A stretch of DNA of 64,000 nt from Escherichia coli. GTDB lineage: Bacteria; Pseudomonadota; Gammaproteobacteria; Enterobacterales; Enterobacteriaceae. The position numbers were made by a program, and so were the translations under genes. The notes beneath the pieces are model-generated. The model did not search any database. It was not told where the DNA came from and saw only the letters and a list, made by a program, of their open reading frames with translations. The stretch lies in NCBI RefSeq assembly GCF_003334335.1, contig NZ_QOWQ01000029.1. The stretch is one strand, 5' to 3'. Below, piece by piece: positions 17,826 to 19,348 of the stretch; within the stretch, counting starts at the first letter, position 1; every line of letters starts with the position of its first letter.

Positions 17826-18275
17826 TCAGGCTTTTACCTGCTGGTAACGGCTGACTTTAAACAGTCGGCGGCAATAATCGAGGAAGTAGCCATAAACCGC
17901 CCCCATCAACATCGAAACAACGATGTTTGAACTGACCGCCGCCATAATCTGATGCCAGTCTGCGCCCACCACTAACAAGATCGCCACATACACCGGTGAC
18001 TGGAACGTCACATAAGCCAGGATATCCGCCAGATTTTTTATCCAGCCCGACGGGCTAACTTTGCGTGCCGCGCGCATAAACAGATCACGGTACATACCGT
18101 ATGGCCATGCAATTAAGATGTTCACCGGAATCGCTACCAATCTGGAATAAAAAGACTGTTCGAAGCTCATTCCGGAGAGGAAAACTTCAATACACATGTT
18201 CACGACAGAACAGTAAACAACCATCGCGAACGTATCTGCAACTGCATGACGCAAGCGTGACTGCGGTGAGAACAT
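17826..18275 (-). CDS. alaE: L-alanine exporter
   Basis: 149-aa membrane ORF. Confidence 0.85.
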
Positions 18276-18943
18276 GCTAATGCTCCTTAATAAAAGCGTA
18301 ATGGGATGTTAATGGAGATGAAAGCAGTGGATCTCATTGCCATCTGCATTTTCGCATAGCGTATATCGCTGGCTATGACTAATCAATTAGTGAAAAATTT
18401 TTATTTAGTCAGTTTTTGTAGATAAAATATTCCGTAACGGCTCGTTTTTTGTACATTGTGGATTTTTACATGCCGATATGATTTATTTTTAATTAAATCA
18501 ATTAGATATGGCCTTACCTTTAATATCACTAATGAAAGTTTGGGGGTGAGGTAACGCTATAAGCGTAGAGAATTCGGTGTATGTAGTAGCTGGGTCATTT
18601 TCAGCATTTTTTATGCCAGACAATGTACATTAACAGCAGAAAGCACCAGTGATGGATGTTTTCTTTTATTCTGTTATATTGCATTTTTATTCACTTTGAT
18701 TTTGTCAGGCTTGCGGAATTAGCGAGCAGAGAGCGCCGCTCTGTTCACCAATAATCTAAATTACTCATCAAAATGGCTAATATATAATCTTGAAATTATT
18801 CTGAGAGTTTCAGAAAATAACAGCTGAAATAATCTCGCGCAGGACTGTAAATAGATTAAATTTTGTGGAAATATAATAAGTGATCGCTTACACTACGCGA
18901 CGAAATACTTTTTTTGTTTTGGCGTTAAAAGGTTTTCTTTATT

Positions 18944-19348
18944 ATGTCCGTAATGTTACAAAGTTTAAATAACATTCGCACCCTCCGTGCGATGGCTCGC
19001 GAATTCTCCATTGACGTTCTTGAAGAAATGCTCGAAAAATTCAGGGTTGTCACTAAAGAAAGACGTGAAGAAGAAGAACAGCAGCAGCGTGAACTGGCAG
19101 AGCGCCAGGAAAAAATTAGCACCTGGCTGGAGCTGATGAAAGCTGACGGAATTAACCCGGAAGAGTTATTGGGTAATAGCTCTGCTGCTGCACCACGCGC
19201 TGGTAAAAAACGCCAGCCGCGTCCGGCGAAATATAAATTCACCGATGTTAACGGTGAAACTAAAACCTGGACCGGTCAGGGCCGTACACCGAAGCCAATT
19301 GCTCAGGCGCTGGCAGAAGGTAAATCTCTCGACGATTTCCTGATCTAA
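18944..19348 (+). CDS. stpA: H-NS paralog StpA
   Basis: 134-aa [24 protein letters not shown]; long AT-rich upstream region. Confidence 0.95.

Follow-up and report, generated by a model that had tools for sequence, protein, structure and literature searches.

The AT-rich gap between alaE and stpA of Escherichia coli as the probable shared control region of two divergent genes

The 668-bp gap at 18276-18943 of the window (the whole stretch of E. coli DNA that was analyzed, 64,000 nt) is a real, ordinary and already described regulatory region; we estimate the probability that it forms the shared back-to-back control region of alaE and stpA, built in three parts, at about 85%. The gap is bounded by the start codon of alaE (L-alanine exporter; CDS 17826-18275, minus strand) and by the ATG of stpA at 18944 (CDS 18944-19348, plus strand). 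With alaE transcribed leftward (minus strand) and stpA rightward (plus strand), the gap is upstream of both genes, which stand back to back as divergent genes around a promoter region do. The original prediction described an AT-rich non-coding region upstream of stpA; the coordinates, the GC content of 33.8%, the lack of annotation in MG1655 and the lack of a credible ORF all bear this out. The gap is indeed upstream of stpA, but the divergent alaE on its other side had been omitted, and with it ∼230 bp of the gap that are likely to hold the alaE promoter and an Lrp operator.

The mechanism that we propose can be outlined as follows. The alaE-proximal ∼230 bp would carry a ribosome binding site, a sigma-70-type promoter (putatively TTGATT-17-TACGCT) and an array of conserved AT-rich blocks; Lrp bound to this array would slightly repress alaE in minimal medium and activate it in the presence of leucine or alanine. 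The stpA-proximal ∼100 bp would contain a promoter (putatively TGGAAA-17-TACACT) and a short leader. The middle ∼370 bp are rich in A-tracts, show no conservation of exact sequence and most likely work through their composition and shape; they could serve as a platform for the H-NS/StpA filaments silencing stpA as well as for Lrp assembly. Lrp bridges the gap to a second site in ygaP and thereby activates stpA.

The identity of the locus is clear. The gap is 100% identical to positions 2798496-2799163 of MG1655, where the curated record annotates no feature between stpA and alaE, and the local gene order (nrdHIE, ygaM, ygaC, alaE, stpA, ygaP, ygaV) is the reverse of that in MG1655. Of 5426 complete E. 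coli genomes, 5420 contain a single copy of the gap sequence, on the chromosome in every case. The first 39.5 kb of the window show 99.94% identity to MG1655; this match ends at 39476, at the edge of the CP4-57 prophage, therefore the source strain is K-12-like with island content differing there. It had also been claimed that this was the longest intergenic region in the core part of the window, which is true of the non-island part in the MG1655 annotation: the only comparable gaps, ypjC-ileY (750 bp, longer) and ileY-ygaQ (559 bp), adjoin the prophage and the island.

The composition of the gap sets it apart from its surroundings (33.8% GC versus 49.6% in the window). We counted 22 runs of at least four A or at least four T, as expected from the many A/T tracts noted originally; composition-matched shuffles gave 10.8 +/- 3.0 such runs, and none of 1000 shuffles reached 22. 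The count is about twice the expectation based on composition and is above that of 99% of windows of equal size. Power of the AA/TT periodicity in the 9.5-11.5 bp band is above the 95th percentile of the spectrum. Composition, tract count and periodicity all characterize the gap as AT-rich DNA with phased A-tracts. The further expectation that such DNA is bound by H-NS agrees with genomic SELEX, where the stpA/alaE spacer was bound by H-NS as well as by the RpoD holoenzyme (PMC3946193).

For occupancy by H-NS and Lrp and for their regulatory effects we relied on the literature, which concerns the identical sequence. Lrp ChIP-seq revealed a double peak at stpA-alaE (Ziegler and Freddolino, mBio 2023, PMC10127797). 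At the alaE promoter two Lrp peaks with slight repression were seen in minimal medium; with Leu/Ile/Val one peak was kept and activation was strong, and PalaE-lacZ was responsive to Lrp and LIV (PMC10127797). A second Lrp peak is located inside ygaP, >1 kb off, and its removal cuts Lrp activation of stpA >5-fold; bridging of the stpA-alaE fragment by Lrp was observed by AFM and was abolished by leucine (PMC10127797). Positive control of alaE via Lrp with L-alanine or L-leucine is stated in PMC6801825 with reference to Ihara 2017. As for stpA, it is silenced by H-NS, depends on Lrp in minimal medium and is induced by temperature and osmotic upshift (PMC4668568, PMC2814080).

The alaE side of the gap was delineated by comparison among relatives. 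With AlaE as query we collected 80 Enterobacteriaceae loci; in 58 of them synteny was kept, with stpA divergent beside alaE, and the stpA-alaE gap was 475-789 bp long. In the alignment anchored at alaE, the AAGGAG ribosome binding site is followed by a poorly conserved stretch and then by dense conserved blocks at about -75 to -230 from the ATG (about 18350-18505 of the window). The Shine-Dalgarno sequence AAGGAG is located at 18283-18288 on the minus strand, and 26 genera-level sequences all share (A)AGGAG. A pattern of TTG and TAnnCT at a fixed 17-bp spacing, conserved across Enterobacteriaceae, points to a core promoter at 18358-18386 (minus strand): TTGATT (18386-18381) and TACGCT (18363-18358) separated by a 17-bp spacer. 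Another -10 candidate, TATACG with a 15-bp spacer, was replaced by TACGCT with its 17-bp spacer. From the sequence, transcription of alaE is predicted to start near 18351, so the leader would be ∼76 nt long.

This putative start falls within a sigma-S polymerase ChIP peak assigned to alaE, 2797100-2797249 in U00096.2 coordinates (PMC4447067), which corresponds to about 18212-18361 of the window once shifted by +1978, the offset deduced from the entries for ssrA and omrA. The hexamers that Shimada et al. gave for the SELEX peak, 18465-18493 for stpA and 18529-18501 for alaE (PMC3946193), differ from those proposed here. A simple promoter consensus scan picked up neither the alaE nor the stpA promoter, and the data of Mendoza-Vargas 2009 contain no start-site entry for this region; both core promoters are putative and were placed by conservation.

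Upstream of the putative alaE promoter, at 18387-18505 on the minus strand, the blocks conserved in all genera read TAAATAAAAATTT, CAGAGyATTTTATCGACAAAAAG, gAAAAT and TGATTTAA. Given their conservation and the published Lrp peaks at, and Lrp control of, alaE, these blocks are likely to constitute the Lrp operator. Nineteen loci (from Kosakonia, Silvania, Superficieibacter and others) carry these blocks with stpA, ygaP and ygaV all missing within 3 kb; the module therefore belongs to alaE. In the 2017 work of Ihara the Lrp footprint reportedly covered -161 to -83; of two upstream fragments, the one of 240 nt is said to have been inducible and the one of 180 nt not. If the footprint was numbered from a start near 18351, it fits the present map.

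We saw two further features of the alaE side in the collected loci. The 19 loci just mentioned (a subset of L041-L079) lack the whole stpA-ygaP-ygaV block upstream of alaE, and synteny breaks in them where the alaE module ends on its outer side, ∼260 bp from the ATG. In Citrobacter amalonaticus (L010) a GC-rich insertion of ∼130 bp, present in no other genus, lies in the presumed alaE leader between the promoter region and the ribosome binding site; it explains a part of the 778-bp gap in this species and may be a small mobile repeat.

On the stpA side, conservation is confined to a shorter segment. The 101 bp before the stpA ATG (18843-18943) diverge by only 5-8% between Escherichia species. 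In the alignment anchored at stpA, CTGGAaAT and TAnnnT are kept across genera at a distance of 17 bp, and so is the AAAAGG ribosome binding site; no conservation between genera was detected in this alignment upstream of about -80. These elements suggest a core promoter at 18866-18894 (plus strand) with TGGAAA (18866-18871), a 17-bp spacer and TACACT (18889-18894), followed by a 5′ leader at 18900-18943 (plus strand) with the Shine-Dalgarno sequence AAAAGG (18927-18932) inside the invariant run GGCGTTAAAAGGTTTT (18921-18936). A TATAAT located in the promoter spacer (18872-18877) was considered as the -10 element as well; TACACT was preferred, being the only one of the two that is kept across genera, though TATAAT is a possible alternative.

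Farther upstream, a sequence resembling the Lrp consensus, CTTGAAATTATTCTG, occupies 18789-18803 on the plus strand (12 of 15 positions match), at about -105 from the putative stpA start; a CTGAATATAAT-like motif occurs at the same position in Salmonella, Citrobacter and Raoultella. We regard it as a weak candidate for an Lrp site, the consensus being no commoner in the gap than in shuffles. Scans with the Lrp (YAGHAWATTWTDCTR) and H-NS (TCGATAAATT) consensus sequences gave matches not above dinucleotide shuffles and thus do not place individual sites.

Some other details of stpA can be mentioned here. The T-run in its leader (18906-18912) consists of seven T both in the window and in E. albertii; locus L003 and all five other E. 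coli sampled have one T fewer, and three other Escherichia lineages have two fewer. The term-seq data of Adams et al. 2021 include a 3′-end inside stpA, at MG1655 position 2798243 (about 19196 of the window, plus strand), besides the main 3′-end at 2798048.

Between the two modules lies the AT-rich spacer, 367 bp (18476-18842), whose length varies between genera. Within E. coli it diverges by 4.4-7.4%, as against 1-4% for the third-codon positions in alaE and stpA; when E. coli is compared with E. albertii and with three other Escherichia lineages, the values are 43-47% for the spacer and 16-24% for the third-codon positions. Since divergence of the spacer exceeds that of third-codon positions, the spacer changes faster than nearly neutral coding positions. 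Outside Escherichia it was not alignable. The fast turnover matches what was reported for H-NS-bound upstream intergenic regions in general, which evolve faster than unbound ones (PMC4720273).

In this near-saturated spacer, a few short islands, among them GTAGAGAAT (18565-18573) and CAGCATTTTTTATG (18602-18615), are nearly fixed across Escherichia. The longest invariant run of the spacer across Escherichia is GTAGAGAAT; a run of this length was reached by 106 of 5000 shuffles. One could suppose that the islands are kept by RNA pairing between GCGTAGAGAAT and ATTTTTTATGC; one-sided changes in E. whittamii (L005) and E. albertii break the pairs, so RNA pairing does not explain the conservation. 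The islands are possibly protein-binding sites. The opposite extreme is found at 18511-18517, just beyond the conserved alaE module, where seven E. coli-like sequences carry six different 7-nt haplotypes; the variation includes three changes in one codon-sized triplet.

It had been suggested that a region of this kind might hide a small RNA or a very small protein, to be looked for by term-seq, by conservation of structured RNA and by ribosome profiling; we obtained no support for either. The best candidate for an sRNA gene would occupy the plus strand at ∼18500-18612, with TTTACA-17-TTTAAT (18465-18493) as the promoter and the only terminator-like hairpin of this strand, with a T-run (18589-18612; hairpin at 18589-18605), as the end. 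We singled out this segment because three features coincide in it: Shimada et al. listed TTTACA-17-TTTAAT as a constitutive RpoD promoter toward stpA (PMC3946193), the hairpin is present, and the plus strand at 18456-18605 folds better than shuffles, with the lowest z of all 50 windows of the sliding scan, -3.2, at 18456-18555. The hairpin, though, is fully paired only in the K-12-like sequence: most E. coli lineages have disrupted pairs, the helix is paired in 69% of cells, and two of its six pairs form in only one (the window sequence) and two of seven sequences. The best-folding segment showed no covariation among the seven E. coli-like sequences (157-209 of 500 shuffles reach the observed values), and it is unalignable in E. 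albertii and other Escherichia lineages. The TTTACA element, moreover, is the reverse complement of one of the alaE blocks that are kept in genera without stpA. In a permissive Rfam scan of the window only chance-level matches appeared (E 0.37-3.9, far under gathering scores), and at the gathering threshold 20 orthologous loci gave no match. In the list of Adams et al. 2021, the consecutive term-seq 3′-ends are 2798243 (inside stpA) and 2800533, with none in the gap, and the supplementary lists that we searched have no entry with coordinate prefixes 27985-27990. Having seen neither a promoter of its own combined with an intrinsic terminator nor conservation or covariation among relatives, we consider an sRNA gene very improbable. 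The 14-codon ORF pointed out originally does exist as a string at 18508-18549 on the plus strand, within the spacer (MALPLISLMKVWG*, 13 aa), and was rightly called unsupported. In favor of a genuine E. coli-specific micro-protein, the ORF is open in four of five other E. coli sampled and, with an altered C-terminus, in the nearest clade; its C-terminal LMKVWG is invariant in E. coli, and several changes are synonymous (TTA to CTG or TTG, ATA to ATT, CTA to CTC, AAA to AAG). Fourteen codons staying open at <8% divergence are, nevertheless, what chance would give, and a hand count of ∼9 nonsynonymous versus ∼6 synonymous changes is too small to show constraint. Codon 2 exists in five states in seven sequences, the stop codon is lost in one E. 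coli, and in four other Escherichia lineages, E. albertii among them, the ATG reads ACG or ATA, with in-frame stops as well in three of the four. This ORF is one of 18 ORFs of at least 10 codons in the gap; in the 16 nt before each of the 18 there is nothing like a Shine-Dalgarno sequence, and across the 11 Escherichia sequences every one of them is disrupted somewhere. The ribosome profiling supplement of Stringer et al. 2021 contains no candidate by gene name, peptide or prefixes 27985-27990, a search that covers the gap between its first 4 and its last 64 nt. Neither a start equipped with a ribosome binding site, nor an ORF preserved in relatives, nor, within this partial coverage, evidence of translation was found; we judge that the ORF is not a gene, and that it encodes a micro-protein is barely credible.

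The spacer invites two more readings, which concern its function rather than hidden genes. It might be functionless junk, incidentally AT-rich, left where an old rearrangement joined the alaE block to the stpA-ygaP-ygaV block; this would explain why synteny in the 19 loci breaks precisely where the alaE module ends on its outer side, and also the absence of conservation and the variable length. Every genus with stpA beside alaE, though, keeps a long AT-rich spacer, the shortest gap being 475 bp; the excess of A-tracts is beyond that due to composition, short islands are conserved within Escherichia, and the DNA is occupied by H-NS and Lrp, with an effect on stpA from a site >1 kb away (PMC10127797, PMC3946193). 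This combination makes junk distinctly improbable. One could speculate, on the other hand, that the spacer is active in its own right, either with lineage-specific versions setting the levels of stpA and alaE or with an H-NS-silenced E. coli transcript that starts from 18465-18493 and carries the 13-codon ORF. We think this unlikely. Were the spacer active, we would be looking at regulatory rewiring under the cover of H-NS, with GTAGAGAAT and CAGCATTTTTTATG as binding sites for some factor; a silenced transcript would imply an RNA visible only once H-NS/StpA silencing is lifted.

The shared control region of alaE and stpA, as we read the gap, is the very locus described for E. coli K-12 as an Lrp double-peak bridging locus (PMC10127797): the DNA, the genes and the Lrp and H-NS literature are the same, no difference in DNA was found, and what is added here is the layout of conservation and the failure to find hidden genes. 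It resembles H-NS-silenced promoters whose AT-rich control elements extend upstream or downstream (for example proVWX, bgl, hns autoregulation) in AT-rich, A-tract-rich flanking DNA, in silencing by H-NS/StpA through composition and shape with no strict motif, and in the faster turnover of H-NS-bound upstream sequence (PMC4720273). Unlike proVWX, bgl and hns, the silenced gene, stpA, encodes an H-NS paralogue, so there is cross-regulation, and the DNA is common to a divergent, Lrp-controlled gene for an amino-acid exporter. A resemblance to Lrp multi-site operators (ilvIH, dadAX, oppA) is seen in the series of AT-rich, conserved blocks preceding the -35 element, in activation and repression modulated by leucine or alanine, and in secondary peaks indicating bridging; in contrast to those operators, the Lrp sites of alaE-stpA are placed only as an array, the consensus scan being uninformative.

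Lrp bridging and H-NS silencing have already been studied at this locus, which carries little weight as a discovery. The useful outcome is a negative one: a long, AT-rich intergenic stretch of core E. coli DNA does not have to conceal a gene. The division into an alaE module that travels with alaE, a putative stpA core promoter and a rapidly diverging spacer provides a map for dissecting the control of stpA and alaE.

Insertion sequences have entered the gap in some E. coli strains. In strain 2017-02-1CC (L089) an IS1B is located inside the putative alaE operator, with a 9-bp target duplication at 18410-18418. In strain QL57EC (L088) an IS1X2 is present at 18683; it is associated with loss of the 5′-end of alaE and of the gap up to 18682, and alaE is left as a pseudogene.
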